A DNA stretch of 64,000 nt from an uncultured Thermoleophilia bacterium (GTDB taxonomy: Bacteria > Actinomycetota > Thermoleophilia > UBA2241): positions 2,789 to 66,788 of the forward strand of contig CAIOZS010000210.1 in NCBI GenBank assembly GCA_903862845.1, in the 5' to 3' direction. The notes beneath the pieces are model-generated. The model was not told the origin of the DNA, searched no databases, and was given only the letters and a program-made list of their open reading frames with translations. Positions 13,664-38,795 of the stretch are shown piece after piece. The number at the start of each line of letters is the position of its first letter. The stretch's first letter is position 1. The position numbers and the translations under genes are program-made.

Positions 13664-15463
13664 CTAGTCTCGGCCGAGGGCGGGGAGCGCGTCGAGCATC
13701 GCCGGCTCGCCGCCGAGCACCTGCACCACGGCGCCTTCGACGCGCGCCGCCATGGCGTCCACGAAGTAGCGCGCCGCCAGCAGCTTGCGCGCGTCGCCTT
13801 GCGCCGCGCGGAGCATCAGGTAACCGCAGCTCACGGCGATGGCCGTCTCCACAAGCCGGCGCGCGTGGAAGTCGCGGTAGCGCACGTCGTCGAGGGCACG
13901 CACGCGGGCGATCGCCTCCGCCAGTCGCGCGCGGGCGACCCGCACGCGCGCCAGCAGCTCCGGTGTCGCGGCGAAGCCCTCGGCGTCGTATTCGCCCAGG
14001 CGGGCTGCGAGCGTGCCTCCGAGCACGCCACCAATGGCGGCCACGACCTGCAGCTGCGTCGTGCCCTCGTAGATGTTGGTGATGCGCGCGTCGCGGCTGT
14101 GACGCTCCACGGCGAAGTCGCGCATGTAGCCGGAGCCGCCGTGGATCTGCAGCGACTCGTAGGCCACGGTGTTGGCCATCTCGGTGCAGCACGCTTTGAC
14201 CAGCGGCGTGAAGAGCGCCGCCAGGCGCGTGTACTTCTTGAGCTCCGCGCGCAGCGCCTTGAGCTCATCGGCGGAGCCTTCGGGGCCGGCGGCCGACGAG
14301 CTGGGGGACGGGCTCGGATGCTGCAGACCAGGCCCTCCGGCGTCGGCCCCCGGCGCCGTGATGTGCGCGATGCGCCGCTCGAGCACTTCCTTCATGTCGA
14401 CGATGAGCGCCGTCTCGTACAGAAGCGCGCGCGCCGCCTCGAGGCTCACCTTCATGTCGGCGAGCATCCCCCTGACGGCGGTGAGCTCGGCGATGGGCGC
14501 GCCGAACTGCACGCGCTCCTGGGCGTACTTGGCGGCGGCGCGGTAGGCTGCTTCGGCGATGCCCTGCGCCTGCGCCGCAATCGCCAAACGGGCGCCGTTC
14601 ATGAGGCTCATCACGTAGGTCGTGAGGCCGCGCCGGCGCTCGCCGACGAGCAGCGCCGGCGCGTCGTCGAACTGCAGCTCGCAGGTCGGCGAGCCGTGGA
14701 TGCCGAGCTTGTCCTCGAGGCGGCGGATGCGCATGTGCGCGTCGCGCTCGTAGAGGAACATGCTGAGGCCGCGGGCATCGGTGGTGCCCTCTTCGGAGCG
14801 CGCCAGCACGAGGCTGAGCTGCCCGCACCCATTGGTGATGAAGCGCTTCACGCCGCTCAGGCGCCAGGTGCCGTCGGGCTGCTCTGTCGCCTTGAGCTGC
14901 ACGTTCTGCAGATCGCTGCCGGCCTCCGGCTCGGTGAGCGCCATGCTGGCGGTGACCTCGCCACTGGCGAAGCGCGGCAGATAGGCCGCCTTCATCTCGT
15001 CGTTCGCGAACTTGCTCACCGTCTCGGCGATGTCCTGCAGCCCAAAGATGTTCATGAGCGCAGGGTCGGCGCGGCTGACCATCTCGACGATCATCACGCT
15101 GACCGTGATCGGGAAGTTGAGGCCGCCGTACTTGCGCGGCAGGGTGATGCCCATGAGGTCGGCCTGTTTGAGGCGCTCGAGGCTCTGGGCGATGCCCGGC
15201 GCGTAGCGGACCTCGCCGTCCACCAGTTCGCTGCCGGCTCGGTCGACGTCTTCCGCGCGCGGTTCGACGAACTCGCCGGCGATGTCGCCGACAATGGCGA
15301 GCGTGCGCTCGTAGGAGTCGAGGGCGTCCTCGAAGTCGCGGGGCGCGTAGGCGAACTCGCCGGCCTGCCGGTAGTCGTCCTCGCGCAGGCGGACGATGCG
15401 CGCCAGGTCGAGACCGCGCAGGGTCGCCTGCAGGTCCGGGTTGTCGCTGTAGAAGTTGCTCAT
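13664..15463 (-). CDS. Acyl-CoA dehydrogenase (long form, about 600 aa)
   Basis: Start MSNFYSDNPD. The ACAD N, M and C domains are present (TEPEAGSDL, IHGGSGY) with a C-terminal extension. The start overlaps the etfA stop. Confidence 0.9.
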   Translation of the reverse strand: MSNFYSDNPDLQATLRGLDLARIVRLREDDYRQAGEFAYAPRDFEDALDSYERTLAIVGDIAGEFVEPRAEDVDRAGSELVDGEVRYAPGIAQSLERLKQADLMGITLPRKYGGLNFPITVSVMIVEMVSRADPALMNIFGLQDIAETVSKFANDEMKAAYLPRFASGEVTASMALTEPEAGSDLQNVQLKATEQPDGTWRLSGVKRFITNGCGQLSLVLARSEEGTTDARGLSMFLYERDAHMRIRRLEDKLGIHGSPTCELQFDDAPALLVGERRRGLTTYVMSLMNGARLAIAAQAQGIAEAAYRAAAKYAQERVQFGAPIAELTAVRGMLADMKVSLEAARALLYETALIVDMKEVLERRIAHITAPGADAGGPGLQHPSPSPSSSAAGPEGSADELKALRAELKKYTRLAALFTPLVKACCTEMANTVAYESLQIHGGSGYMRDFAVERHSRDARITNIYEGTTQLQVVAAIGGVLGGTLAARLGEYDAEGFAATPELLARVRVARARLAEAIARVRALDDVRYRDFHARRLVETAIAVSCGYLMLRAAQGDARKLLAARYFVDAMAARVEGAVVQVLGGEPAMLDALPALGRD

Positions 15464-16524
15464 GCCTTCGTCCTGTAGGCCTTGATCAGCAGAGGGATGA
15501 CCTTGTGCAGGTCGCCGGCAATGCCGTAGTGGGCCACCGAGAAGATCGGCGCGTGTGGATCGCTGTTGATGGCCAGGATGCGGGCGCTCTGGTCCATGCC
15601 GGCGCGGTGCTGCACGGAGCCGCTGATGCCGCAGGCGATGTACAGCTTGGGGCGCACCGTGGTGCCGGTCTGCCCGACCTGGTGCTCGTGGCCGACCCAG
15701 CCCGCATCCACGGCGGCGCGGCTGGCGCCGACGACGCCGCCGAGCGTGCGGGCCAGCTCCTCGACGAGGGCGAAGCCCTCGCGTGAGCCGACGCCCACGC
15801 CGCCCGAGACGACCACCCGGGCGCCCTTGAGGTCGACCCTCTTCCCCTCCTGCACGCGCTTCACGAGGCGCACGGCGAAATCCGCGTCGGTGAGCACGAT
15901 GCGGTCCGCGGCAGCGACGGGCGCCGACGAGCGCTGCACCGGCACCGTGACCACGGTGCCGGTGCGACTCTCGTCGGCCTCCGGCATGACCATGACGCCC
16001 TCCCGCACGGTGGCCATCTGCGGCCTGTGCTCGGGGCTCACGATGGTGGCGATGATGTTGCCACCGAACGCCGGGCGGATCTGGAAGAGGAGATCGGCGT
16101 AGGTCTCGCCCTTGGCCGAGAAGTCGCCGATGCGCAGGTCGGTGCAGTCGGCGGTGAGGCCGGTGCGCAAGGCGCTGGCCACGCGCGGCGCCAGATCGCG
16201 GCCGCTGGTCGTGGCGCCGTAGAGGACGATCTGCGGCCGGTGGGCACGGACGAGGCCGACGACGACGCACGTGTACGGCAGTGCCAGGTAGTCGCCGAGG
16301 TCGTCGTGGTCGGCCAGGTACACGGTGTCGGCGCCGCGGGCGATGAGGGCGGGCGCAAGAGCCCTGACGGGCGCGCCCGCCCCGGCCAGCACGGCGCCGA
16401 TGCCGACGCCGAGCCTTTCGGCAAGCTCGCGGGCGCGGCCGAGCAGCTCGAGGCTGACCTCGGCCGCAACGCCGTCATGCTGTTCGACGACCACCCAGAC
16501 ATCGCCGGCCTCCGCGCCCCTCAC
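15460..16524 (-). CDS. etfA: Electron transfer flavoprotein alpha subunit
   Basis: FAD-binding C-terminal domain (YIACGISGSVQH...LAINSDP). The start is uncertain: a GTG after GGGAGG is preferred over the upstream TTG. Confidence 0.85.
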   Translation of the reverse strand: MRGAEAGDVWVVVEQHDGVAAEVSLELLGRARELAERLGVGIGAVLAGAGAPVRALAPALIARGADTVYLADHDDLGDYLALPYTCVVVGLVRAHRPQIVLYGATTSGRDLAPRVASALRTGLTADCTDLRIGDFSAKGETYADLLFQIRPAFGGNIIATIVSPEHRPQMATVREGVMVMPEADESRTGTVVTVPVQRSSAPVAAADRIVLTDADFAVRLVKRVQEGKRVDLKGARVVVSGGVGVGSREGFALVEELARTLGGVVGASRAAVDAGWVGHEHQVGQTGTTVRPKLYIACGISGSVQHRAGMDQSARILAINSDPHAPIFSVAHYGIAGDLHKVIPLLIKAYRTKA

Positions 16525-16543
16525 GGGGGCGCCTCCCGCCGCG

Positions 16544-17470
16544 CTAGCCAAGGATGTGCTCCTCGATAAGCTCGTGGACGAGAATGGCGAGGCCGGCTTC
16601 GTCCGGCGTCACCATGCGCGCCTCGCTCTGCGCGAGCACGACGCTCTCGATCTCCTTCACGCGCGTCGGCGAGCCGCGCAGGCCCAGCGCCTCGCGGTCG
16701 GCCGCGAGGGCGAGATGGTCCCACTGCACGACCTTGGCGCGGCACACCGGCCGGCCGTCGCGGCCGACCATGCACACCTCGGCGGCGTCGCTCTCGGGGT
16801 CGAGGTAGGTGTCATCGTAGTCGGGCATGGACTCTGCGGCGATGCCCTTGTACGTCATGACAAGCTTGACGCTGGGCGGGCGCGGTTCGTTGGCCTCGCC
16901 GGTGACCGTGAGCAGGCAGGGGAGCAACGAGGTGAGCGTCTCGTAGCCGCCCTCGATGGAGCGCGTGGCGGTGACGGCGCCGCCCGCGCCGCCTGCCGGC
17001 GCCACCAGCTCGTCGACCCGGCTCACGCAGGTGATCTGCGGATAGCCCAGCTTCTCGGCGGTCTGCGGGCCCACCTGCGCCGTGTCGCCGTCGATCGCCT
17101 GGCGACCGCAGAGCACGAGATCACAGCCGCCCAGCTTGCGCACCGCCAGCGACAGCACGTAGCTCGTGGCCAGCGTGTCGGCGCCGGCGAACGCCTTGTC
17201 GGTGAGCAGGATGACCTCGTCGACGCCGCGGTACAGCGACTCGCGAAGAACCTGTACGGCGGCCGGCGGCCCCATGGTGACGACGGTCACGCGGGCGCCG
17301 TGGCGATCCTTGAGGCGCAGCGCCTCTTCCAGCGCGTTGAGGTCTTCGGGGTTGAAGACGGCCGGCAGCGCCGCGCGGTTGACGGTCCCATCCTCTTTCA
17401 TCGCGTCGCCCGTCACGTTCTGCGTGTCCGGGACCTGCTTGACGAGGACGACGATGCGCAGCTGGGACAT
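16544..17470 (-). CDS. etfB: Electron transfer flavoprotein beta subunit
   Basis: N-terminus MSQLRIVVLVKQVPD, typical of EtfB. Confidence 0.85.
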   Translation of the reverse strand: MSQLRIVVLVKQVPDTQNVTGDAMKEDGTVNRAALPAVFNPEDLNALEEALRLKDRHGARVTVVTMGPPAAVQVLRESLYRGVDEVILLTDKAFAGADTLATSYVLSLAVRKLGGCDLVLCGRQAIDGDTAQVGPQTAEKLGYPQITCVSRVDELVAPAGGAGGAVTATRSIEGGYETLTSLLPCLLTVTGEANEPRPPSVKLVMTYKGIAAESMPDYDDTYLDPESDAAEVCMVGRDGRPVCRAKVVQWDHLALAADREALGLRGSPTRVKEIESVVLAQSEARMVTPDEAGLAILVHELIEEHILG

Positions 17471-17716
17471 GTCGGTCAATGTTTCCCGTCGTCGTTGTTT
17501 GCGGATGCGGTACGGTACCAGAAACGGCGCGTCCGCGGCAAAGGTGAGAGGGACGAGGCCCCAGCGCAGGCGCGCCTCGACCGCCAAGGGCCCCGTGCGA
17601 CGATCCCCTCATGAGGAGGGGCCTGCCGACACTGGTGGCGCTGCCGGCGTGCGCCCGCATCTTCGCCGGCGCGGCCGCGCCTGCGGCCGTCGCGCCGCTC
17701 GCGCCGCGGCCGACCC

Positions 17717-23979: not shown

Positions 23980-24912
23980 ATGGCCATCGAGTCCAAGAAA
24001 GCCGTGGTCGCCGCGATCATCGCCAACGCCGCCATCGCGGTCATCAAGTTCGTGGCCGGCAGCATGACGGGAAGCTCGGCGATGATCAGCGAGGGCATTC
24101 ACTCCCTGGTCGACACCGGCAACGGCGGGCTGCTTTACCACGGCCTCCGCCGCGGCGCCCGGCCCGCCGACCACCACCATCCCTTCGGGCACGGCATGGA
24201 GGTCTACTTCTGGAGCCTCATCGTCGCCGTGAGCATCTTCGGCATTGGCGGCGGCATGTCGATCTACGAGGGCATCAGCCACATCCGGCACCCTGCGCCC
24301 CTCGCGAACCCTACGATCAACTACGTCGTCCTGGCCCTGGCGGCCGTGTTCGAGTCGATCTCGTTCGGCGTGGCGTGGAAGGCCTTCCGCACGACCAGGG
24401 GTTCGCGGCGCACCTTCGCCGCTATCCACCACGGCAAGGACCCGAGCATGTTCACCGTGCTGTTCGAGGACTCGGCGGCGCTGATCGGCCTGGTCGTCGC
24501 GTTCGTCGGCGTCTTTCTGAGCCACCTGCTGCACCTGCCCGTCCTCGACGGCGCGGCCTCAGTGGCGATCGGCCTCATCCTCGTCTGCGCCGCCGGCTGG
24601 CTGGCCTACGAGAGCAAGAGCCTGCTCATGGGCGAGGCGGCCGACCCTGAGATGGTAGCGGCCATTCGCGAGATCGCCCTGGCCGACCCGGCGGTGATCG
24701 GTCTCGGCGTTGTCCTCACGATGCACCTCGGCCCCGACGAAGTACTTCTCAACATCGAGGTCCAGTTCACCGAAGGGTTGCCGGCCGAGGCGATCCACGC
24801 GGCCGTGCATCGCATCGAGGAGTGCATCAACGGGCCGTACCCAGAGGTGAGCCGGATCTTCATCGAGGTCGAGGTGCCGCCCGACGGCGCTGTGGTCGCT
24901 CCGGCTTCCTGA
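23980..24912 (+). CDS. Cation diffusion facilitator family transporter
   Basis: Six TM helices, HSLVDTGNG and H-rich motifs, and a C-terminal cytoplasmic domain. Confidence 0.85.
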   Translation: MAIESKKAVVAAIIANAAIAVIKFVAGSMTGSSAMISEGIHSLVDTGNGGLLYHGLRRGARPADHHHPFGHGMEVYFWSLIVAVSIFGIGGGMSIYEGISHIRHPAPLANPTINYVVLALAAVFESISFGVAWKAFRTTRGSRRTFAAIHHGKDPSMFTVLFEDSAALIGLVVAFVGVFLSHLLHLPVLDGAASVAIGLILVCAAGWLAYESKSLLMGEAADPEMVAAIREIALADPAVIGLGVVLTMHLGPDEVLLNIEVQFTEGLPAEAIHAAVHRIEECINGPYPEVSRIFIEVEVPPDGAVVAPAS

Positions 24913-24981
24913 AGGGCCGAGAAAGCGTTTTCACCGGCGGCCACGCCGACTGCTGAAGTCCGGCGCGTCATCGGCCGATAC

Positions 24982-25389
24982 TTACCATCGAGATGAAGCC
25001 GCGGCGTTTCGCGCCGGAGTGAAGCGCCCGCCGGCTGACCGCCGTCCTGCTTGGGCCTCGGCCGCGGGCGGTGCGGTGGCGGCCTCGTCGGGCTCCTGCG
25101 CACCCGCGGCTTCGTCGCGCCTGCGCGTCACATCTGGAGGATCCTCCGTCAGCCCTTGGGGAGAGAGCCTGGTCAGTGCCTCGTCGTAGCGACCGGGGTC
25201 CGTGTCCACTTGCGCGTCCGGGGTGCGCCGCCGGGAGGCCAAGGTCTGCAGGTTCTTGTGGGTGCCGGGCAACTGCACACGGATGGCGAACCGAAGGCTT
25301 GCGCCGCCACCTTCGCCGCACGTCCGGAGCTCGATGGGGTTGCAGGTCGCGGCGTCGACCAAGTAGGTGGCGTGGCCGTCGTCGGACAC
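24982..25389 (-). CDS. Hypothetical protein at the distal end of the AOR operon
   Basis: GC3 is high over the first ~75 codons only. I recognised no domain. Confidence 0.3.
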   Translation of the reverse strand: MSDDGHATYLVDAATCNPIELRTCGEGGGASLRFAIRVQLPGTHKNLQTLASRRRTPDAQVDTDPGRYDEALTRLSPQGLTEDPPDVTRRRDEAAGAQEPDEAATAPPAAEAQAGRRSAGGRFTPARNAAASSRW

Positions 25390-25405
25390 GACGGGAGCCT
25401 TGGTC

Positions 25406-26170
25406 TCATCTTCTCGGCGACGCGAGGCGCTCGCTTGTCAGGCGCGCTTTGCAGACCTCACAGAGGTCGGTGCTCTTCACCGGCAGGTCTGCCCCGGCGG
25501 CCATCGCCGCGGCGTGCGCCTTGGTCGTGATCGGCCTGCCGCAGCGCACGCAGGTGAGGAGCTCGAAGGTGCGGCCCCAGATCGTACGCGTGGTGGCCGT
25601 GTCCGCCATCGGTATGCACGCAGTGGGGCACGCTTCGACGCAGGAGCCGCAGCCCACACAGTCCTTCGCTGCCGTCCGGCCGAAGGGCGGACCCACACGC
25701 TTGTCGTGGCCGCGGCCGGTCGCCGCCAGCGCGTTGTAGTCCAGGGCGCAGCACACGCGCACGCACAGTTCGCACAGTATGCAGTCGGGCAGCGGAGCGT
25801 CGGTGACGGGAGCGAACCGCGCCCTTGTCACCCCGAACTGCGTGGCGAGCTGCCGGAGGACCGGGGCATCCGGGGCGCGTCGCAGCAGAAGCTCCAGATT
25901 CATGCCGCGGTGCTTGCGGATGCGCGGTGAGTTTGTCACCACGACGAGGCCGGCAGACACGGGGTAGTCGCACGAGGTCGTCAGCTGCACCCAGTCGCGG
26001 CCTGGCCGGCGCACCTCGATGAGGCAGAGACGGCACGACGCGATTGCCGGAACTGCCTCGTGGTGACAGAGCGCCGGGACGTCCCGGCCGGCGCACCGGG
26101 CGACGTCGAGCAAGCTTGCGCCCGCCGCAGCGGTGACCGGCACATCGTCGATGATCAGCTCAACGTCCAC
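25406..26170 (-). CDS. NuoG-N-terminal-like iron-sulfur protein (2Fe-2S plus 4Fe-4S clusters)
   Basis: 2Fe-2S Cys pattern (CHHE...SCRLC...C) and two Cys clusters (CILCELCVRVC, CVGCGSCVEACP). GTG start with an AGGAGG SD. Confidence 0.75.
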   Translation of the reverse strand: MDVELIIDDVPVTAAAGASLLDVARCAGRDVPALCHHEAVPAIASCRLCLIEVRRPGRDWVQLTTSCDYPVSAGLVVVTNSPRIRKHRGMNLELLLRRAPDAPVLRQLATQFGVTRARFAPVTDAPLPDCILCELCVRVCCALDYNALAATGRGHDKRVGPPFGRTAAKDCVGCGSCVEACPTACIPMADTATTRTIWGRTFELLTCVRCGRPITTKAHAAAMAAGADLPVKSTDLCEVCKARLTSERLASPRR

Positions 26171-26179
26171 GGCGGCCTC

Positions 26180-28033
26180 CTACTGCACCAACACCGCGTC
26201 GCGGTTGCAGACGTCCTTGCAGATGCCGCACTTGATGCAGAGCTCCTGGGTAATGGTGTGCGGCTGCTTCTTCTCGCCGACGACGGCATCCTGAGGGCAG
26301 CGAACGGCGCACAACGTACAACCGTTGCAGCGTTCCGCGAGGATGCTGAAGCTGATAAGCGCCTTGCAGACCCCCGCCGGGCAGCGCTTGTCGTCCACAT
26401 GCGCGAGGTACTCCTCGCGAAAGTAGCGCAGCGTGGACAGGACCGGGTTGACCGCACTCGTGCCGAGGGCGCAGAGGGAGGTGGCCTCGACGGTGTCGGC
26501 GAGCTCCTCGACGAGGGCGATGGTCTCGCGCGTGCCGCGGCCCTCGGTGATGTCGCCGAGCAGGTCGTGCAGGATGCTGAGCCCGTCGCGGCACGAGGTG
26601 CAGTTGCCGCACGACTCGGAGGCCAGGAAGCGCAGAAAGTACTTGGCGACGTCCACCATGCACGTTTCCTCGTCCATCACGATCATGCCGCCGGACCCCA
26701 TCATGGAGCCCTCGGCGACGAGTGTGTCGAAGTCCACCGGCACGTCGAGCTTGTCCGCCGACAGGCAGCCCCCAGATGGACCGCCGGTCTGGACGGCCTT
26801 GAAAGCCTTGCCATCAGGGATGCCTTCGCCCACGTCGAAGATGATCTGGCGCAGGGTCATGCCCATCGGCACCTCGACAAGCCCCGTGTTGTTCACCATG
26901 CCGACGAGGGAGAAGATCTTGGTACCGGGAGAACCTTCGGTGCCGATCGCACGAAACCACTCCGCCCCGTTGAGCAGAATGAGCGGGACGTTGGCCCAGG
27001 ACTCCACGTTGTTCACGTTGGTCGGCCGACCCCACAGGCCGTGCTCGGAGAGGTGGATGAGTCGTCGATGCGGTACGCCGCGACGACCCTCGAGCGAAGC
27101 CATCATGGCGCTGGCCTCACCGCAGACGAACGCGCCGCCGCCCCTGCTCACCCGTACGTCGAAGGACAGGTCGCTTCCCAAGATGGCGTCACCGAGCAGG
27201 CCCAGCGCCCGCGACTGCTCGATCGCAAGGTCGAGGTGCTCCACCGCCAAAGGGTACTCCTGACGGACGTACACGTAGCCCTCGCGTGCTCCCATGGCGA
27301 AGGCGCCGATGGTCATCCCCTCGAGCACGCTGTGAGGATTCCCCTCGAGGATCGAGCGGTCCATGAAGGCGCCCGGATCGCCCTCGTCGGCGTTGCAGAC
27401 CACGTAGCGCAGTTCACCCGCCGCGCTGCGGCACGCCTCCCACTTGCGGCCGGCCGGGAAGCCCGCGCCGCCGCGACCGCGCAGGCCGGAGCGTTTGACC
27501 TCCTCCAGCACCGCCGTCGGGCCCATCTCCAGGGCTCGCACCAGCGCCGAGTAGCCGCCGGCGGCGATGTAGTCGTCGATCGACGTGGGGTCGAGCTGCC
27601 CTGTGTCGCGCAGCACGATGCGCCGCTGGTGACTATAGAACGGGATGTCTTCCTCCCGGCGGTACCGCTGACCGGTCACCGGGTCCTCGCACAACAGGCG
27701 CTCCAGCACCTCTCCGCCGAGCAGGGTCTTCTCGACGATCTCGACCACGTCCGCGACCTGCACGTGCTCGTAGAGGATGCCCTCGGGCAGCACCTTGACA
27801 AGCGGCCCACGCTCGCAGAACCCGTGGCAGCCGGTGGCCCGCATGCCGACCGTGCGGTCGGCCCCGTGTGCGTCGATCTCAGTGCACAGAGCGTCGAACA
27901 CCTTCATCGCCCCCTGCGCCCGGCAGCCGGTCCCGCCGCAGACGGCGACGACCTTGTGACGGGTGTCCTCGGTGGCGACCAGCACGTCGCGATGACGCGA
28001 CAATGCTCCCGGATCGGAGAACACCCCGCTCAC
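26180..28033 (-). CDS. NuoF/HoxF/HndC-like NAD(P)H-binding flavoprotein subunit, with an N-terminal thioredoxin-like 2Fe-2S domain and a C-terminal 2x[4Fe-4S] domain
   Basis: GGAGFPAGRKW, FMN and NADH motifs, ESCGNCTSCR, and C-terminal CxxCxxCxxxCP x2. GTG start overlaps the upstream stop (GTGA) after AAGGAGGA. Confidence 0.85.
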   Translation of the reverse strand: MSGVFSDPGALSRHRDVLVATEDTRHKVVAVCGGTGCRAQGAMKVFDALCTEIDAHGADRTVGMRATGCHGFCERGPLVKVLPEGILYEHVQVADVVEIVEKTLLGGEVLERLLCEDPVTGQRYRREEDIPFYSHQRRIVLRDTGQLDPTSIDDYIAAGGYSALVRALEMGPTAVLEEVKRSGLRGRGGAGFPAGRKWEACRSAAGELRYVVCNADEGDPGAFMDRSILEGNPHSVLEGMTIGAFAMGAREGYVYVRQEYPLAVEHLDLAIEQSRALGLLGDAILGSDLSFDVRVSRGGGAFVCGEASAMMASLEGRRGVPHRRLIHLSEHGLWGRPTNVNNVESWANVPLILLNGAEWFRAIGTEGSPGTKIFSLVGMVNNTGLVEVPMGMTLRQIIFDVGEGIPDGKAFKAVQTGGPSGGCLSADKLDVPVDFDTLVAEGSMMGSGGMIVMDEETCMVDVAKYFLRFLASESCGNCTSCRDGLSILHDLLGDITEGRGTRETIALVEELADTVEATSLCALGTSAVNPVLSTLRYFREEYLAHVDDKRCPAGVCKALISFSILAERCNGCTLCAVRCPQDAVVGEKKQPHTITQELCIKCGICKDVCNRDAVLVQ

Positions 28034-28521
28034 GTTGGCTCCTCCTTCTTGAGGAGCTCGTCTACCAGTCGCGAGAGCCGTTCCCCGGTCATGTGGCCGT
28101 GGTACTCGTCGTCGATGAGGACGAGTGGACCCAGGGCGCACGCGCCCACGCAGCTGACCTCCTCCACGGTCAGTGACAGGTCCGGCGTGGTGCCGCCCGC
28201 CGTGACTCCGGTGTCTCGTTCGAGCTGCTCCAGGAGCCGCGGCGCGCCGCGCACGTGGCAGGCGGTGCCCATGCAGACGGTGCAGGTGTGCTCGCCGCGG
28301 GGCTCGGTGTGGAAGCCGTGGTAGAAGGTGGTCACGCCGTACACGTGGGCGGGCGACAGTCCCAGGTAGGACGCCGTCTCCTGCAGAGCGCTCTCAGGGA
28401 GGTAGCGGAGCGCGGCCTGCAGGTCGTGCAGGATGTTCACGAGGTCGCCCGGATCGCGCCGAGGATAGCGCGCCAGGATTGCCGCTACGCGGCCGGTGTC
28501 GCTGGCCTGAGTCTCGCTCAC
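28030..28521 (-). CDS. NuoE-like 2Fe-2S thioredoxin-fold subunit
   Basis: CTVCMGTACHVRG...CVGACALGP motifs. GTG start after GGGAGG. Confidence 0.8.
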   Translation of the reverse strand: MSETQASDTGRVAAILARYPRRDPGDLVNILHDLQAALRYLPESALQETASYLGLSPAHVYGVTTFYHGFHTEPRGEHTCTVCMGTACHVRGAPRLLEQLERDTGVTAGGTTPDLSLTVEEVSCVGACALGPLVLIDDEYHGHMTGERLSRLVDELLKKEEPT

Positions 28522-28537
28522 CTTTGCGCCCTCCCGG

Positions 28538-28810
28538 TCATCCGCCGGCCACCATGGGGAAGATCGAGACCTCGTCACCGGCCTCCAGCGGCGTGTCGAG
28601 CCCCTCGAGGTGGACCACGTTGCGCCCGTTGACGAGGATGATGATCTCGCCGCTGAGCTGGTCGCCCGAGAACACGGCGCGGCGGAAGGCCGTACCGTAG
28701 CGCGCCGCGAGCGACGTCAGCAGCTCGCGCATGCCCGCGGGCGCGTCGTCGATGCGCCGCTCGGTCTCGCCCGCGTAGGTGCGGATGGTGGCAAAGTACT
28801 TGACGGTCAT
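28538..28810 (-). CDS. MoaD/ThiS-family sulfur-carrier-like protein
   Basis: 90 aa with a beta-grasp-like sequence ending in GG. Confidence 0.6.
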   Translation of the reverse strand: MTVKYFATIRTYAGETERRIDDAPAGMRELLTSLAARYGTAFRRAVFSGDQLSGEIIILVNGRNVVHLEGLDTPLEAGDEVSIFPMVAGG

Positions 28811-28875
28811 GCGCGGATCTCCGTGAGGCGCGGTGCCGGGCGGCGTGAGCCGCCCGGCACCGACATCGCCCCTCG

Positions 28876-30678
28876 CTAGAGGGCCAGTTCCTTGAGTTTG
28901 GCCTCGGTGGGCACGCCTTCCTCGTCCCAGCCGCGGAGCTCGTAGTACTCGGGCAGCATGTCGTCGAGGCGACTGACGTGTCCCTTCGACGGGCCGGTCT
29001 TGATCGGCTCGGTCAGCAGGCGCTGCGGCAATGCGTCGTCCGCCTTGGTGAAGCCGGCCGTGAGGTTCCAGAGCCGCTCCTGGTTCCAGATCCGCTCGCC
29101 GATGCGCATGAACTCGTCCAGCGTGTAGTCCACGCCGGTCAGAGCCGCCAGCATCTCGGTGAGCTCGGCGCCGCCGATCCCGAAGGTCGCGAAGAGACAG
29201 GCGCCGCTCGAGTCCAGCGCCGCCGTGAGGTCCTGGAACGTGATGCCCAGCCCGGCCTTGTCGTCGGTCACGTGCGGGTCCATCACGGCGCCGTTCTGCA
29301 GCACCTCGATGGCGATGGTGTAGCCGCGCACGTGGCAGCCGCCACGGTTGCCGGTCGCGTAGTTGAGGCCGATGCCCTGCACGCCACGCGGGTCGTAGGC
29401 GGGCATCTCCTGCTTCTTGCAGGTCATGGAGTACTCCGGGTGACCGTAGCTCTCGGCGAGGCGGTACGAGCCCTGAGCGAGCTTGGCACCGAACCCCTCC
29501 CCTTTGCCGGTCTTGTGCACCATCTCGACCATGGCCGCCGTGTTGCCGAACGTGAGCTGCACCCCATCAGTGTCCTCGGTCGTAATGATGCCCCGCTCGA
29601 AGAGCTCCATCGCGCAGGCCACCGTCGAACCCATCGATATGGTGTCGAGCCCGTACTCGTTGCAGTAGTAGTTGGCTTTGGTGATGGCGTCCAGGTCGTC
29701 GATGCCACAATCGGCGCCGAATGCCCAGGCGGTCTCGTACTCCGGCCCCTCGCCGCTGCCCTTGTAGTCTGGGCTGTCGACCTTGGTGACCCGGCCGCAG
29801 GAGATGATGCAGCTGAAGCAGCCCTTGGGCCGGATCAGCTGCTTGGCGGCGAGCGACTCGCCGCCGGTCTTGTCGGCGGTGGGGAAGTAGCCGTCCTGGA
29901 AGTTACGCGTCGGCAGCGCGCCCGACTGATTGAGGATGTTGACGAGCACGTCGGTGCCGTAGGCCCTGAGGCCGGTGCCGCCGACGGGGTGAGCCTGGAT
30001 CATCTGGCGCGCCTTCATCACGGCGGCCTTGAAGCCCTCGGGGTCGGCGACCTTCACGGCGCCGCTGCCGAATACGGCGACGGCTTTGAGGTTCTTGGAG
30101 CCCATCACCGCACCGACGCCGGTGCGGCCCGCGGCGCGGTGCATCTCGTTCATGATGTTGGCGATCAGGGAGAGATGCTCACCGGCCGGTCCGATGCATG
30201 AGACCTTGGCGTCTTCGTCGGTCTCGGCGCGCACGAGGTCGGTGGTGTCGGGGGTAGTGTGGCCCCAGAGCGCGGCCGCGTCGCGGATCTCCACCTGGTC
30301 GTCTTTGATCCACAGGTAGACGGGCTTGGCGGACTTGCCCTCGATGATGAGGGCGTCGTAGCCCGCGTACTTGAGCTCCGGGCCGAACGTGCCGCCGGAG
30401 TTGGAGGCGGCGAGCACGCCGTTCAGCGGACCCTTGGTGACGACGTCGAAGCGTCCGGCCGCCGGCGCGAACGTGCCGGTCAGAGGCCCCGGCGCGAAGA
30501 CGATCTTGTTGTCCGCGCCGAGAGCGTCGGTCTTGGGGTCGACCTCGGAGCGCACGATGTGGCCGCCGAGGCCGCGTGCCCCGAGATAGTCTCGCGCGAG
30601 CTGCGGGTCGGTGGCCTCACGGCTCACCTTGCCCTTGGTGAGGTCGATGCGGAGGATGGTGCCGGTCCAACCGAACAT
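28876..30678 (-). CDS. Aldehyde:ferredoxin oxidoreductase family tungsten (or Mo) enzyme
   Basis: Full-length AOR signature: the N-terminal domain, the EXXH and GxD pterin-binding regions, and the CxxC...C 4Fe-4S ligands (CFSCIISCGR). Confidence 0.9.
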   Translation of the reverse strand: MFGWTGTILRIDLTKGKVSREATDPQLARDYLGARGLGGHIVRSEVDPKTDALGADNKIVFAPGPLTGTFAPAAGRFDVVTKGPLNGVLAASNSGGTFGPELKYAGYDALIIEGKSAKPVYLWIKDDQVEIRDAAALWGHTTPDTTDLVRAETDEDAKVSCIGPAGEHLSLIANIMNEMHRAAGRTGVGAVMGSKNLKAVAVFGSGAVKVADPEGFKAAVMKARQMIQAHPVGGTGLRAYGTDVLVNILNQSGALPTRNFQDGYFPTADKTGGESLAAKQLIRPKGCFSCIISCGRVTKVDSPDYKGSGEGPEYETAWAFGADCGIDDLDAITKANYYCNEYGLDTISMGSTVACAMELFERGIITTEDTDGVQLTFGNTAAMVEMVHKTGKGEGFGAKLAQGSYRLAESYGHPEYSMTCKKQEMPAYDPRGVQGIGLNYATGNRGGCHVRGYTIAIEVLQNGAVMDPHVTDDKAGLGITFQDLTAALDSSGACLFATFGIGGAELTEMLAALTGVDYTLDEFMRIGERIWNQERLWNLTAGFTKADDALPQRLLTEPIKTGPSKGHVSRLDDMLPEYYELRGWDEEGVPTEAKLKELAL

Positions 30679-30679
30679 C

Positions 30680-31162
30680 TCAGCTCACCTCCTGGAAGGC
30701 ATCCTTGAACTTGGCCGCGTAGGCCTTCTTGCGCGAGCGCACGTGCTGCTCGTCGTCGACGAACTCGAGGGCCCCGTTGGGGCAGAAGGTCACGCACTCG
30801 GGCGCGCCCTGGCAGGTGTCGCACTTGAAGATGCTGCTCGAGGCGGCGTCGTAGCGGGCGTTGCCGAACGGACAGGCAATGGTGCACATCTTGCAGCGGA
30901 TGCAGGTGCCCGCGTCCCAGTCCACGAGGTTCGCCAGCGCGTTGCTGCGATGCATGGCGCCGGTGGGGCAGACGGTGACGCAGGCGGCGTCGTCACACTG
31001 CTGGCACATCATCGGTACCGACATGCCCTCGCGCTCCCAGGTGTACGCCTGCACACGCGAGGCTCCCGGGCGGAACTGGCCCTCGTGCTCGAACGAGCAG
31101 GCCAGCTCACAGTTGCGGCACCCGGTGCACTTGTCCGGGTGGATCATGAGTACCTTGGCCAT
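30680..31162 (-). CDS. 4Fe-4S ferredoxin-type electron-transfer subunit (AorA/BamC-like)
   Basis: Four CxxCxxCxxxCP-type motifs. Strong SD (AAAGGAGGGAGCC-ATG). The stop lies 2 nt before the AOR start. Confidence 0.8.
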   Translation of the reverse strand: MAKVLMIHPDKCTGCRNCELACSFEHEGQFRPGASRVQAYTWEREGMSVPMMCQQCDDAACVTVCPTGAMHRSNALANLVDWDAGTCIRCKMCTIACPFGNARYDAASSSIFKCDTCQGAPECVTFCPNGALEFVDDEQHVRSRKKAYAAKFKDAFQEVS

Positions 31163-31302
31163 GGCTCCCTCCTTTGTGCGTCGACTCCACGGATGATCGG
31201 CAGACCCTGTGATGATGCGGCCGAACGCGGAGGTGGTCGAGTCGACTCGTGGCCACTCTTGCCGCGCGGAAGTGGTCGCGTGCACACCGCGGCGCTCCGC
31301 GA

Positions 31303-32811
31303 CTACGGCAGCCGCCGGTCGAGAAGCTCGGCAGCGCGCAGGCCGAGCTGGACGTCGACGACGTCGTCGAGGTCGTCGAGGTCGATCCCGAGGATCTGCT
31401 CCACGTGCGCCAGCCGCTTCTGGAGCGTGTTGCGATGGATGTGCAGTGCGTCGGCGGTCTGCTGGACCGCGCGGCCGTGGGCGAACAGCTCGTGGAGTGT
31501 CTGGAAGAGACTGGCGTGGTGCTGGGCGTCGTAGTCCAGGAGCGGCGCGAACGTGCGCCGAACGATGCCGGCGAGAGCGTTCTGGTCCAGACCGTCGAGA
31601 AGTCGCAGGTGGCCGGCCAGCTCCTCGAACACGGCTGTGCTGGCAGGAGATGGGCCGCGGCGAGCCGCCATGCAGGCCGCCTTGGCCTGCTGCAGGCTGC
31701 GCGGCGCGCCGTCCACCCCTGCCAGGGGAGCCGAGCACCCGACGACGACCCCGCCGGGCAAGATCACCTTTGCCGCCGCCTCCTGCAGCTCGGCGACCAG
31801 AACCCTCGCCGTGCTCGTCTCGGCGTCGGCGAGTGTGGCGAGCACGAGGGCCGTGGACCCCGACGACAGGCTGAGAAACGGGACCCGGCGTCTGCTCACC
31901 ACGGCGTCGAGGGCGTGCAGGAGTCTGGCGCCGGAGGGTGCTCTTCTCCGCGCGCCGACCGCCGGCCGCGGGGCGGCCGCAAGCGACGCCGGCTCGACGA
32001 CCGCGAGTCGCAGCGTGCCGCTGGTATCGAAACCCTGTTCCTGCATGCGGATGCGCAGCTCCTCCAGGCCGCCTTCACCGGCGAGGATGTCGCGGAGCAG
32101 ACCGCGGCGCACACGTCTGCGCATCCGCAGCTCGTCACGGCTCCGTAGCAGATCGAGCGTGACGAGCTGTTGCAAGAACGACAACGACGCGCCGGCGAGC
32201 TCCGAAGGCTGCCGAGCCGGGGCCACGGCGGCGAGCACGCGCTCGACGCGGTCCATCACGAGGATGTCGCGGTAGAAGATGTGGTCGCCGGCGTTCTCGA
32301 CCCTGCCGAGGTAGCCCGGGACGTTGCGCAGATCCCTGTAGACGGCCCAGAGGCGGAGCGCGAGGCCGGGCGAGCTCTCGGCGCTGCGCGACGAGCACAC
32401 GGTGTGCCCGCGGGTGTCGAACAGCACCATCGGCATGTCGATGAGCGCGGCGACCGTGTCGATGAGCTCTCCGACATCCTTCTGCTGGACGACCAGCTCG
32501 AGCAGCCGGATCTGGAGCGCCGCCGTGCGGCGCAGCGTCTGCATGTCACCGGCCGCCGACGCCTCGGGGTCATCGGCGGTCTCCTCGCCGTCCTCCGCGT
32601 CGCCCAGGGACGCCTCGAGCTCCTCGGTGTGCAGGCGCACCTGGTGCTGCAGCATGATCGTCGTCTGGAAGAGATCGAATCCGGAACCCTGAGGTTTGGT
32701 GCCCGACTCGACGCGGTTCATGAGCGCTTGAACGATCTTGTTGAGCCGCACGATCTCGGCCTCCAGTGCCTGTATGTCCGGGCCGTCGCCCGGCCGCACC
32801 GCGTCAGGCAT
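31303..32811 (-). CDS. PucR/CdaR-family transcriptional regulator
   Basis: C-terminal PucR-type HTH (TLQKRLAHVEQILGIDLDDLDD) with an N-terminal GGDEF-like/sensory region. Confidence 0.8.
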   Translation of the reverse strand: MPDAVRPGDGPDIQALEAEIVRLNKIVQALMNRVESGTKPQGSGFDLFQTTIMLQHQVRLHTEELEASLGDAEDGEETADDPEASAAGDMQTLRRTAALQIRLLELVVQQKDVGELIDTVAALIDMPMVLFDTRGHTVCSSRSAESSPGLALRLWAVYRDLRNVPGYLGRVENAGDHIFYRDILVMDRVERVLAAVAPARQPSELAGASLSFLQQLVTLDLLRSRDELRMRRRVRRGLLRDILAGEGGLEELRIRMQEQGFDTSGTLRLAVVEPASLAAAPRPAVGARRRAPSGARLLHALDAVVSRRRVPFLSLSSGSTALVLATLADAETSTARVLVAELQEAAAKVILPGGVVVGCSAPLAGVDGAPRSLQQAKAACMAARRGPSPASTAVFEELAGHLRLLDGLDQNALAGIVRRTFAPLLDYDAQHHASLFQTLHELFAHGRAVQQTADALHIHRNTLQKRLAHVEQILGIDLDDLDDVVDVQLGLRAAELLDRRLP

Positions 32812-33964
32812 CGCCGGCCTCGGCGGGCCCGGCTCCGAGAGCCACGCCGGTCAGCGTCTGGTTGATGTGAACGCCGCAGAACTGCTCGCCGTAGGTGTTG
32901 AAGCCCACCGCGTTGTGACGTCGCAGCATGTCACTCACGGCCGCGTTGAGGCCGGTCTCCGCGATCTCCAGCTTGCGCAGGATGCAGTCACAGGCGAGGA
33001 CGAGCTCGGGCTCGCCGACCTCCGCCCGGACCCTTGCCAAGGCCTGCTCGAGGTTAGTGACCAGGTTCATTCCCTTGGCCTCCCGGAGAACGACTCCCCG
33101 CTCGATCGCGCAGTAAAAGGTCAGGCTGCCGTCGGGACTGGCCTTCTGGATGGAGCGCACGTAGTTGGCGCCGTCGATCAGCACGACCACAGGCGACGCT
33201 GCGAAATGGATCGGCGAAAGATCCTCCGGGGAGACGCCGAGCAGGCGGGCGTATTCCTGGGCGGCCGGCAGCCCGTTGATCTCCTTCACGACGCGGCGCA
33301 AGGGATCAGCCTCGGTGACGACGAGCCGTTCTTCAGTGGGCACGAAGTGCTGCGTCTTGAACGTCTTCACGCGCAGCGGCGTGGAGACCAGCGTGAGCAC
33401 GGCCGCGTCGCTGAGGAACCGGCCGCCCGAGTAGACTTGTGTGCTGGCGAAGCTCAGAGCATCGCCTGCGGAGCCGCCGACGACAGGGATCTCGCCGAGC
33501 GCCTCCTGGACTGAGTAAGCCAGCAGTTCCTCACGCGCGGAGAGCCCGTCGACGAGCAGGAAGGCGAAACGATGCCAGCCCTCCCGCCCCGGTGTGAGGC
33601 CGTCGATCTCGTCGAGCAGACCGCGGGCGATGGCATGGCCGTCGCCGATCTCGAAGCCCTGCAGTCCTTCGATGGATTGGGTGACGGCGGCGCAGGCGCC
33701 GGGGGAGAAGCTCACTCCGGCGATGCTCCCGTCGAGACAGCCGATCGGCCCGATCTCTCCTGCCGTCGTGCAGCCAATCACCTGGACGCCGGCGAAGCGC
33801 CGCGCCATCTCGCAGGCCAGAACATCGCGGTCGTAGGCGCTCGAGCAGAAGAAGATCACGAGCGACATCGCGGGCTGCGCGACGCCGGCGAAGAGCTCCT
33901 CCACGGCGTCGCGTGGATCGGTGGCGCAGGACTGCGCGGTGCGGATGCCGTGCCGGTCGCTCAT
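32804..33964 (-). CDS. FIST (N and C) domain sensor protein
   Basis: Layout matches the FIST_N and FIST_C domains. Strong SD (GAGGGGAGGGG). It overlaps the PucR start by 8 nt. Confidence 0.75.
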   Translation of the reverse strand: MSDRHGIRTAQSCATDPRDAVEELFAGVAQPAMSLVIFFCSSAYDRDVLACEMARRFAGVQVIGCTTAGEIGPIGCLDGSIAGVSFSPGACAAVTQSIEGLQGFEIGDGHAIARGLLDEIDGLTPGREGWHRFAFLLVDGLSAREELLAYSVQEALGEIPVVGGSAGDALSFASTQVYSGGRFLSDAAVLTLVSTPLRVKTFKTQHFVPTEERLVVTEADPLRRVVKEINGLPAAQEYARLLGVSPEDLSPIHFAASPVVVLIDGANYVRSIQKASPDGSLTFYCAIERGVVLREAKGMNLVTNLEQALARVRAEVGEPELVLACDCILRKLEIAETGLNAAVSDMLRRHNAVGFNTYGEQFCGVHINQTLTGVALGAGPAEAGDA

Positions 33965-37355: not shown

Positions 37356-38795
37356 GTGACTGACGCAAGCAAGTTCTACATCGACGGGCAGTGGGTCCAG
37401 CCCGTCCATCCCGGGGACGAGATCGTCGTCATCAACCCGGCGACGGAAGAGGAGGTGGCGCGCGTCGCGGCTGCCTCTCCCGCAGACGTCGAGGCGGCGG
37501 TGCAGGCGGCTCACCGGGCCTTCGAAAGCTACTCGCAGACGACGCGCGAGGAACGCATCGGGCTCCTGATGCGGCTCCGCGAGGCGTACAAGCGCCGCAT
37601 CCCCGCGATCGCGGCCGCGATGACGACCGAGGTCGGCATCCCGCGCGGGCTCGCCGAGGGCGGCCAGGTGCTGGCCGGCGCGGGCCACCTGAAGGAAGCC
37701 ATGGAGGCGCTCCGCGACTATCCGCTGCACGAGGACTGGGGCTCGACGCGCATCGTGCGTGAGCCCGTCGGCGTCTGCGCCCTGCTCGCGCCCTGGAACT
37801 GGCCGATGAACCAGGTGACGGCCAAGGTGGGACCGGCGCTGGCCGCCGGCTGCACCATGGTCCTCAAGCCGAGCCAGCTCTCGCCGCTCTCGGCGCTGCT
37901 CTTCGCCGACGCAGCGGACGAGGCGGGCATCCCGCCCGGCGTGTTCAACATGGTGAACGGCGCCGGTGCGGCGCTGGGCGACGCGTTCTCCACCCATCCG
38001 CTCGTCGACATGGTGTCGATCACCGGCTCGACCGCGGTGGGGGGCTCCGTGGCTGCCGCTGCGGCTCCCTCCATCAAGCGCGTCTCCCAGGAGCTCGGCG
38101 GCAAGTCGGCCAACGTCGTGTTCGCTGACGTGGACGTCCGGAAGGTCGTCGCTTCCGGCACGCTGGGCTGCATGCACAACTCCGGCCAGACCTGCAACGC
38201 GCCCACCCGCATGCTCGTCGCGCAGGAGATCTACGAGGAGGCGGTCGAGGTCGCCGCCCGCACCGCCGGGGCGGTGGCCGTCGGCGACCCGCTCGACCGG
38301 GCGACTTTCATGGGTCCCGTCGCCGGACGCAAGCAGTACCAAAAGGTGCGCGCCTACATCGAGACCGGAATCGCGGAGGGCGCCCGGCTGGTCGCCGGCG
38401 GGCTCGAGCGGCCGGACGGCCTCGACAAGGGCTTCTTCGTGCGGCCGACGGTCTTTGCCGATGTGACGCCCGACATGCGCATCTTCCGGGAAGAGATCTT
38501 CGGTCCGGTGCTCTGCATCACGCCGTTCCGCGATGAGGCGCAGGCCATCGAACTGGCCAATGCCACCGAGTTCGGCCTCTCGGGCTACGTGCAGTCGGCC
38601 GACCTCGAACGGGCGAGGCGGGTGGCCGGACGGATGCGCACCGGCATGGTGCACCTGAACGGCGCGCCGACTGACGGCCGCGCGCCCTTCGGCGGCTACC
38701 GGCAGTCGGGCAACGGCCGCGAATGGGGACGGTTCGGGCTTGAGGACTTCCTCGAGGTCAAGGCCGTGATGGGCTGGGAGCCGCGGGCGCGCTGA
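37356..38795 (+). CDS. NAD(P)-dependent aldehyde dehydrogenase
   Basis: FYIDGQWV N-terminus, catalytic Cys (GQTCNAP), the ELGGKS motif and an EEIFGPV-type C-terminus. GTG start after GGAGGG. Confidence 0.9.
   Translation: MTDASKFYIDGQWVQPVHPGDEIVVINPATEEEVARVAAASPADVEAAVQAAHRAFESYSQTTREERIGLLMRLREAYKRRIPAIAAAMTTEVGIPRGLAEGGQVLAGAGHLKEAMEALRDYPLHEDWGSTRIVREPVGVCALLAPWNWPMNQVTAKVGPALAAGCTMVLKPSQLSPLSALLFADAADEAGIPPGVFNMVNGAGAALGDAFSTHPLVDMVSITGSTAVGGSVAAAAAPSIKRVSQELGGKSANVVFADVDVRKVVASGTLGCMHNSGQTCNAPTRMLVAQEIYEEAVEVAARTAGAVAVGDPLDRATFMGPVAGRKQYQKVRAYIETGIAEGARLVAGGLERPDGLDKGFFVRPTVFADVTPDMRIFREEIFGPVLCITPFRDEAQAIELANATEFGLSGYVQSADLERARRVAGRMRTGMVHLNGAPTDGRAPFGGYRQSGNGREWGRFGLEDFLEVKAVMGWEPRAR

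Follow-up and report, generated by a model that had tools for sequence, protein, structure and literature searches.

The window analyzed here, a 64,000-nucleotide stretch of contig CAIOZS010000210.1 (assembly GCA_903862845.1) from an uncultured Thermoleophilia bacterium, carries on its minus strand, at positions 25406-31162, a compact operon of six genes that, judged from sequence, very probably (at roughly 85%) encodes an electron-bifurcating (BF)-type tungsten oxidoreductase, WorABCSL, a 'Wor-Bfu' or Type 2 member of the BfuABC family. The composition, activity, and structure of such a system are known already, and the operon presents another member in another host lineage. The novelty implied by the original prediction, which had read the genes as an aldehyde ferredoxin oxidoreductase (AOR) joined to a NuoE/NuoF/NuoG-like module, does not survive, because the architecture had reportedly been described biochemically by Schut et al. 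in 2021 as WorABCSL (AmWOR1) of Acetomicrobium mobile, had been classified in 2022, and had been solved structurally in 2025. The class was named 'Wor-Bfu' and made the prototypical Type 2 of the BfuABC family by Schut et al. (2022; PMC9304861), and both the cryogenic electron microscopy structure of the bifurcating WorABC(SL)3 complex, 9mqx, and its electron path have been published (Feng, Schut, Putumbaka, Li, Adams, PNAS 2025, PMC12318220). The A. mobile enzyme, which has been purified from this gut bacterium, couples aldehyde oxidation to the simultaneous reduction of nicotinamide adenine dinucleotide (NAD+) and ferredoxin (PMC9304861, PMC12318220), neither acceptor being reduced without the other (PMC9304861).

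The same structure is the best Protein Data Bank (PDB) match for four of the five predicted enzyme subunits (WorL, WorB, WorA, and WorS). Two further claims thereby gain substance: that a NuoE/F/G-type flavin module is wired directly to the AOR and its ferredoxin, the very arrangement of the closest characterized homolog, and that the product would be an NAD-linked, possibly bifurcating aldehyde oxidoreductase, for which homology to the A. mobile enzyme argues.

In transcription order, the operon comprises a WorS-like ferredoxin gene (30680-31162, 160 aa), a WorL-like AOR gene (28876-30678, 600 aa), a MoaD/ThiS-like gene (28538-28810, 90 aa), a NuoE-like gene of the WorC or BfuC type (28030-28521, 163 aa), a NuoF-like gene of the WorB or BfuB type (26180-28033, 617 aa), and a gene resembling the N-terminal part of NuoG, of the WorA or short BfuA type (25406-26170, 254 aa). 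The operon span is exactly the distance from the stop of the last gene to the start of the first, and the intergenic gaps along the order S-L-MoaD-C-B-A are 1, 65, 16, -4, and 9 nt, the negative value being a 4-nt overlap between the worB start and the worC stop. The starts of the NuoE-like gene (28521) and the NuoF-like gene (28033) were taken from gene calls on public contigs with an identical AOR. Each of the six genes is preceded by a Shine-Dalgarno-like site 5-9 nt 5′ of its start, including an AAGGAGG 6 nt ahead of the worS ATG. Since the window is GC-rich throughout (about 0.65-0.72; about 69% in the host), with equal GC content within the operon and outside it, long spurious open reading frames (ORFs) are frequent on both strands; the third-codon-position GC content (GC3) of the six operon genes lies at 0.85-0.95. 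The earlier account of six minus-strand genes with overlapping or near-touching boundaries is thus accurate to the coordinate, and the domain identity that it gave to each of the six proteins was borne out by both Pfam and NCBIfam.

All five WorABCSL subunit genes lie within this one cluster, and tblastn searches with the window proteins recovered the S-L-MoaD-C-B-A order in about 15 metagenome-assembled genomes (MAGs) of Thermoleophilia. This conservation of order and of tight spacing speaks against the idea that the NuoE/F/G-like genes serve another enzyme, such as a hydrogenase, a formate dehydrogenase, or a Bam-like aryl-CoA reductase, and merely adjoin a ferredoxin-dependent AOR. Precedent lends the idea something, in that BfuABC cores serve many catalytic modules (PMC9304861) and the closest BfuCBA homologs in Myxococcota adjoin 2-oxoacid oxidoreductase genes. 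Yet no hydrogenase, formate dehydrogenase, BamB-type, or heterodisulfide reductase (Hdr)-like gene was found in or near the operon, the WorA-like protein lacks a catalytic domain, and the AOR scores 763 bits against WorL versus 201 against BamB, so that a chance neighborhood of this kind is hardly credible. An M-type monomeric archaeal AOR, in which the L subunit stands alone with free ferredoxin as sole acceptor, was also considered and rejected, as WorS and WorCBA sit in the same cluster.

The catalytic pair is homologous to that of the solved complex. The WorL-like protein matches Pfam AFOR_N (3.5e-79) and AFOR_C (1.8e-153), and its PDB matches descend from A. mobile WorL (9mqx_D, 2.5e-228, 763 bits, 57% identity) through 1aor (698 bits) and 8c0z_A (622 bits) to BamB (4z3w_A, 201 bits). 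Where the original prediction had allowed for an AOR homolog devoid of its pterin or cluster ligands, the four [4Fe-4S] ligands C287, C290, C294, and C494 are all present, together with Y314, E315, Y428, and H449, the counterparts of Y310, E311, Y423, and H444, which are active-site residues of A. mobile WorL (PMC12318220). The subunit is accordingly of a type predicted to bind a tungsto-bis-pyranopterin and one [4Fe-4S] cluster. Its partner, the WorS-like polyferredoxin, belongs to the Pfam Fer4 families and has 16 cysteines in four CxxCxxC...C motifs, predicted to hold four [4Fe-4S] clusters. Its best PDB match is 9mqx_E (7.1e-46, 50% identity), with residues 1-153 aligned to 1-150 of the 152-residue chain, followed by AorA (8c0z_C, 7.7e-38), and its C-terminal segment (KKAYAAKFKDAFQEVS) aligns, by sequence alone, with the C-terminal helix through which A. 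mobile WorS forms its nanowire.

Between the catalytic pair and the flavin module lies the MoaD-like gene, whose product matches Pfam ThiS (8.7e-17) and, above the cutoff, NCBIfam moaD_arch (1.2e-21), and ends in Gly-Gly. It is probably a maturation factor for the pyranopterin (tungsten) cofactor and not an enzyme subunit. Such a gene is ordinary for the enzyme family, because its position is that of wor1X of Eubacterium limosum, a tungsten-processing protein that is no subunit (PMC11725836), and its kind is that of the MoaD-like genes aorD and aorE of the Aromatoleum aromaticum aor operon (PMC6365974).

The most diagnostic subunit is WorA. The window protein matches Pfam Fer2_4 (1.2e-13) and Fer4_7, and its best PDB match is the 247-residue 9mqx_A (4.2e-48 over residues 3-244, 38% identity), well ahead of the second (6.5e-24). 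It contains a [2Fe-2S] site (C35, C46, C49, and C67), two [4Fe-4S] motifs at residues 130-140 and 171-181, and two CxxC pairs (C207/C210 and C237/C240) predicted to form a Cys4 zinc-finger motif, followed by a short tail; its cysteines are invariant among 14 homologs. There is no His-ligated A3 motif, with no Cys/His motif at all between residues 68 and 129, and A5 and the catalytic C-terminal domain are likewise missing. An AlphaFold2 (AF2) model, with a mean confidence score (pLDDT) of 67.8, predicts a helix at residues 238-250; its iron-sulfur (FeS)-binding loops fall below a pLDDT of 50, and the model was used just for the fold match and for this helix. Foldseek searches with it placed 9mqx_A first (4.2e-19), the next match following at 2.9e-10. 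Taken from motifs and model together, the protein would display every published hallmark of WorA: no A3, no catalytic domain, a Cys4 motif, and a C-terminal helix. Short BfuA proteins of this sort form a moderately diverse family, since 179 relatives at E <= 1e-30 were found among 1.84 billion cluster representatives, most of them 240-290 aa long and matched over their full length. The Thermoleophilia clade of WorA collapses to essentially one 50% cluster.

The remaining two subunits complete the core. The WorC-like protein matches Pfam 2Fe-2S_thioredx (8.5e-46), with the [2Fe-2S] ligands C83, C88, C124, and C128, and its closest PDB relatives are BfuC subunits of bifurcating hydrogenases (7p5h_C, 1.5e-37; 7t2r_C, 2.4e-37), with 9mqx_C at 6e-30. 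The WorB-like protein matches Pfam Complex1_51K (3.5e-43) and NADH_4Fe-4S (9.3e-30), with a 2Fe-2S_thioredx domain at the N-terminus and a Fer4 dicluster at the C-terminus, and finds 9mqx_B as its best PDB match (2.4e-232, 776 bits, 58% identity). All six of its PDB matches at E <= 1e-200 are of the BfuB type, among them HydB of bifurcating hydrogenases and also NfnB. Motifs for flavin mononucleotide (FMN) and NADH, whose loss in the NuoF-like protein had been entertained, are both in place (GRGGAGF at 186-192 and DEGDPGAF at 216-223), as are ligands for the B1 cluster (C475, C478, C481, and C521), for the N-terminal B5 [2Fe-2S] cluster (C32, C37, C69, and C73), and, in the form CxxCxxCxxxC at 569-579 and 599-609, for the two C-terminal [4Fe-4S] clusters, B3 and B4. 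H545, C551, and C556 align with the region of the Zn/B2 site, an assignment by alignment alone.

This arrangement of WorB tells on whether the trio might be a plain, non-bifurcating diaphorase like AorC, its additional clusters being mere wiring in an NAD(P)+-dependent enzyme. With NAD+ as the sole acceptor, aldehyde oxidation is already exergonic (PMC9304861), non-bifurcating NuoEF-type modules do exist, for example in the NAD-dependent formate dehydrogenases among the weaker WorB matches, and the docking helix at the C-terminus of WorA is unlike that of A. mobile. Against this, WorB has both the N-terminal [2Fe-2S] domain and the C-terminal pair of [4Fe-4S] domains, its 776 bits to 9mqx_B compare with 384 to the non-bifurcating FdsB (FdsB and NuoF reaching about half), and the characterized homolog strictly needs both acceptors (PMC9304861). 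We therefore regard a plain diaphorase as very unlikely and favor a bifurcating WorABCSL. Obligately coupled reduction of NAD+ and ferredoxin has been established for the A. mobile enzyme alone and would be expected here by analogy with it.

If the window enzyme works as its homolog does, WorL would oxidize aldehydes to carboxylic acids at its tungsto-bis-pyranopterin site, and the electrons would leave through the WorL [4Fe-4S] cluster for the four [4Fe-4S] clusters of WorS. From there they would enter the short BfuA-type WorA, passing A4, A2, and the [2Fe-2S] cluster A1, and arrive at the WorB/WorC core, where FMN and the nearby clusters would divide them between NAD+, which would become NADH, and low-potential ferredoxin (Fd). 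The net reaction would be 2 RCHO + NAD+ + 2 Fd(ox) -> 2 RCOOH + NADH + 2 Fd(red). The assembly of the complex, its stoichiometry, and its physiological substrate and direction would presumably follow the homolog as well.

Direction in particular invites a different view, namely, that the complex runs mostly in reverse in vivo as a confurcating carboxylic acid reductase, producing, at the expense of NADH and reduced ferredoxin, aldehydes that could, for instance, feed alcohol formation in anoxic sediments. AOR-family enzymes do reduce acids under strongly reducing conditions (PMC6365974, PMC9295118), Bfu enzymes are reversible by description (PMC9304861), and the operon-bearing MAGs stem, per public records, from surveys of lake water columns, lake sediment, and soil. 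Thermodynamics and context pull the other way: the acid/aldehyde couple lies at about -560 mV (PMC9304861), which makes reduction unfavorable except at low pH and high acid; both studied homologs have been assigned to aldehyde detoxification (PMC12318220, PMC11725836); and the operon contains no alcohol dehydrogenase, the sole nearby aldehyde enzyme, encoded on the opposite strand at about 37356-38795 and thus about 6 kb from the operon, being an aldehyde dehydrogenase of the NAD(P) type. Net operation in reverse is thus improbable, and aldehyde oxidation by a bifurcating WorABCSL remains the favored direction.

Several observations weigh against the Wor-Bfu assignment or temper it. The enzyme of the host organism is known here from its genes alone, and the choice between tungsten and molybdenum is not readable from sequence; tungsten would be expected from the family to which the catalytic subunit belongs. 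The genes for tungsten or molybdenum cofactors whose presence elsewhere the original prediction had proposed as a check were sought in the window, and neither a tungstate transporter nor another pyranopterin-biosynthesis gene, nor a gene for a ferredoxin acceptor, appeared among the about 46 ORFs scanned. WorA, the most diagnostic subunit, is only 38% identical to its A. mobile counterpart, and its AF2 model is of moderate confidence. Its tail helix (KARLTSERLASPRR) does not have the hydrophobic and aromatic residues (Y238, F242, I244, and F245) by which WorA of A. mobile docks onto WorS, so that the geometry of coupling and the 1:3 stoichiometry may differ; a docking mode and a stoichiometry like those of A. 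mobile can here be presumed at most. Lastly, WorA and WorB are nearer to BfuA and BfuB of Myxococcota 2-oxoacid oxidoreductase operons (50-54% and 63-69%, respectively) than to those of A. mobile (38% and 58%).

The last point leads to the evolution of the operon. A WorA-alignment scan over one genome per GTDB species found full-length homologs at 64-84% identity only in MAGs labeled Thermoleophilia, Actinomycetota, or Actinomycetes, then at 42-54% in MAGs labeled Myxococcota or Deltaproteobacteria, and at 36% in Dehalococcoidia. An identical AOR protein occurs on freshwater-metagenome contigs and in MAG GCA_903903655.1. The flanks of the operon are syntenic in Thermoleophilia MAGs, with BipA at one end and genes for cation efflux and a HAD protein at the other. 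This synteny points to vertical inheritance as opposed to a recent island, and the operon appears to have been inherited vertically within the Thermoleophilia lineage. The proximity of WorA and WorB to Por-Bfu cores, in turn, suggests that the Bfu core may have joined WorSL more than once. Such a separate recruitment would make for uncertainty about the evolution of the enzyme, not about its function.

Two further arrangements were seen among the related loci, which are designated by L numbers. In the Myxococcota or 'Deltaproteobacteria' loci L016-L024 and L028 (e.g., L017:3181-9210), genes for POR alpha, beta, and gamma are followed by homologs of WorC, WorB, and WorA and then by a WorS-like polyferredoxin (about 40-44%), an arrangement that looks like a Por-Bfu operon with a WorS homolog; the Por-Bfu described in 2025 has neither a WorS homolog nor the C-terminal helix of WorA (PMC12318220). 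Some Thermoleophilia MAGs, moreover, have a second, paralogous Wor-Bfu operon (L010:3125-8750 and L015:1-8762), in which WorS and WorL are divergent (38-49%) and WorC, WorB, and WorA are similar (64-80%). L015, which comes from the same MAG as L011, has upstream an extra AOR-like gene (30%), a further ferredoxin fragment, and two MoaD-like genes, which suggests two different WorSL modules beside one BfuABC core.

The published distribution of the class is narrow. A 2022 survey listed Synergistetes and Firmicutes as Wor-Bfu hosts, with 37 sequences (PMC9304861), and the 2025 paper counted 29 BF-type members among the 444 of WorL clade 87 (PMC12318220). Actinobacteria are not mentioned as Wor-Bfu hosts in the literature texts checked, a statement that covers the supplementary files in part, and a literature search for Thermoleophilia together with aldehyde ferredoxin oxidoreductase found nothing. 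The host range of Wor-Bfu thus seems to extend to Thermoleophilia, within the Actinomycetota.

Upstream of the operon, the 140-bp spacer between worS and the preceding gene holds a conserved cis-element (31212-31286, minus strand), delineated by an alignment of 10 Thermoleophilia upstream regions and consisting of an invariant TGTGCAC at 31280-31286, an AGAGTGG-like box, CGA.T, and CAT. By its conservation, it is a candidate promoter or operator. The preceding gene (31303-32811, minus strand) encodes a PucR-family regulator of 502 aa (Pfam HTH_30, 4.6e-19; GGDEF_2, 2e-10), and before it, on the same strand as the operon, lies a gene (32804-33964) for a FIST-domain protein of 386 aa according to the identical contigs (Pfam FIST, 2.3e-43; FIST_C, 3.2e-22); this gene shares its last 8 nt with the beginning of the PucR gene. 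This overlap suggests a two-protein module of sensor and regulator. The pair occurs in most, not all, of the related Thermoleophilia loci: a PucR homolog lies upstream of worS in L003, L006, L008, L009, L011-L013, L027, and L029 and further off in L007, whereas L004, L005, and L025 have BipA directly upstream of worS in place of FIST and PucR. All ten related loci with PucR upstream have the element, and the three without the pair lack it, a co-occurrence that supports, without proving, a dedicated regulator. The PucR-type protein is accordingly a candidate regulator of the operon and the FIST protein a candidate ligand sensor paired with it, and the operon is probably controlled by this pair acting on the conserved element and not by a tungsten-cofactor riboswitch.

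A riboswitch for the molybdenum cofactor (Moco) or the tungsten cofactor (Tuco) was indeed sought and rejected, none being found at the Rfam gathering threshold in the whole window or at E values up to 10 in 30600-31700; no Rfam family of any kind reached its gathering threshold anywhere in the window. The only matches were at chance level; one of these, a sub-threshold match to the archaeal C/D-box small RNA sR14 in the spacer ahead of worS (31186-31233, plus strand, 21 bits versus a gathering score of 38, E 0.004), was treated as chance. A scan of 24700-31500 for sigma-70 promoters and intrinsic terminators gave no promoter match and two terminator-like sites, both inside genes and in line with the expectation from shuffles; in a high-GC genome such as this one, it says nothing about operon boundaries.

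Downstream of worA, a weakly supported seventh ORF had been noted at 24982-25389 (minus strand, 135 aa). It exists, as a gene call on near-identical contigs, but a place for it in the system was rejected. Neither Pfam nor NCBIfam yields a match for the ORF, its GC3 is 0.79, its Shine-Dalgarno-like site is weak, and it is not conserved in related operons: it recurs only in the near-identical contigs L001 and L002, L004 and L025 give short, weak matches, and in L003 just about 200-230 bp separate worA from a convergent cation-efflux gene, which leaves no room for it. It probably lies outside the system and is possibly not a gene. The spacer in which it lies (24913-25405 in the window, between worA and the convergent cation-efflux gene) differs in length among relatives, being about 900 bp long in L004 and L025 but only about 200 bp in L003. 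Residues ~86-135 are the sole part of the ORF with weak similarity in L004 and L025, and the spacer may hold either a small gene or conserved non-coding sequence.

The rest of the scanned window is housekeeping or unrelated, with genes for GltX, a GT87 glycosyltransferase, HAD/PAP2 hydrolases, a restriction-modification methylase, aminotransferases, a radical-SAM protein, and EtfAB. The EtfB-like and EtfA-like genes are neighbors at 15460-17587 (minus strand), about 8 kb from the operon, with nothing linking them to it. A type I restriction-modification methylase (N6_Mtase) lies in the stretch 38829-~47000 and is followed, on identical contigs, by HsdM_N and Fic genes, past which lies a Phd-like antitoxin at 42185-42595. 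GC content falls to 0.65-0.67 at 40-48 kb, and this stretch may be a patch of mobile or defense genes.

The significance of the locus lies in breadth. It would widen the class of electron-bifurcating tungsten AORs beyond the gut and thermophilic Synergistetes and Firmicutes, to uncultured, high-GC Thermoleophilia of lake and soil metagenomes, and tungsten-dependent, ferredoxin-generating aldehyde metabolism may belong to the anaerobic physiology of these Actinomycetota. The FIST/PucR pair and the conserved upstream element would constitute a second regulatory solution, in place of a Tuco riboswitch. There is no new mechanism and no new architecture, and the importance is modest. A bolder synthesis is conceivable, and we consider it rather doubtful as a whole: the operon would be an independently assembled Wor-Bfu in which WorSL joined a BfuABC core nearer to Myxococcota Por-Bfu, with a different docking of the WorA tail, possibly another stoichiometry, and FIST/PucR control instead of a riboswitch; its enzyme would serve Actinomycetota of anoxic freshwater and soil in conserving energy or balancing redox, and not in the detoxification of aldehydes as in the gut. 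In a weaker form, bifurcating tungsten AORs may simply be far commoner in the environment than the 29-37 sequences of the literature.

Comparison with known systems locates the operon more precisely. The AorABC enzyme of A. aromaticum (8c0z) shares the catalytic pair (AorB resembling WorL at 622 bits and AorA resembling WorS at 7.7e-38), the MoaD-like genes, and the NAD-linked output. It differs in being non-bifurcating, with a single flavin adenine dinucleotide (FAD) subunit, AorC (PMC6365974), whereas the window encodes a three-subunit FMN/FeS BfuABC core; no FAD/pyridine-nucleotide-disulfide-type domain such as that of AorC was found in the six operon proteins by Pfam or NCBIfam. The distinction from AorABC drawn in the original prediction, a three-subunit NuoEFG-like NAD module without an AorC-type gene, is therefore upheld. 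Its likening of the operon to a Bam module without the Hdr part was reasonable, in that BamBCDEFGHI likewise joins a tungsten-pterin subunit and a small FeS subunit to BfuCBA-type BamGHI, and Bam and Wor BfuB subunits share BfuB clade 45 (Schut et al., 2022, PMC9304861). The absence of the Hdr-like BamDEF, in the operon as among the scanned window genes, was also correctly foreseen. Bam is nevertheless not the nearest relative, which is WorABCSL. The catalytic subunit here is an AOR, for which BamB reaches 201 bits over residues 3-417 only, versus 763 for WorL, and the substrate class is another. The Por-Bfu operons of Myxococcota MAGs provide the most similar BfuC, BfuB, and BfuA outside Thermoleophilia (51-69%, 63-69%, and 42-54%, respectively) and a WorS-like polyferredoxin, and differ in their catalytic module, POR alpha/beta/gamma in place of a tungsten AOR.

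Closest in gene order is the WOR1 cluster of E. limosum, which is written wor1SLXABC; its locus tags place wor1L, wor1X, and wor1C consecutively, and the order S, L, X, C, B, A that can be read from the locus tags in a figure legend is that of the window (PMC11725836). Ahead of the E. limosum cluster lies a Tuco-dependent riboswitch, RF01055 (PMC11725836), whereas a FIST and PucR-type pair and a conserved DNA element stand upstream here. Closest in characterized composition is WorABCSL of A. mobile, with which the window shares the five subunits (WorL, WorS, and the BfuA, BfuB, and BfuC types), the predicted cofactor set, the C-terminal helix segment of WorS, the catalytic Tyr/Glu/Tyr/His of WorL, and a WorA without A3 and with a Cys4 motif and a C-terminal helix. 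The two differ in sequence (38-58% identity), in the less hydrophobic C-terminal helix of the window's WorA, and in their hosts, uncultured high-GC Thermoleophilia on the one hand and the Synergistetes and Firmicutes of the literature on the other.

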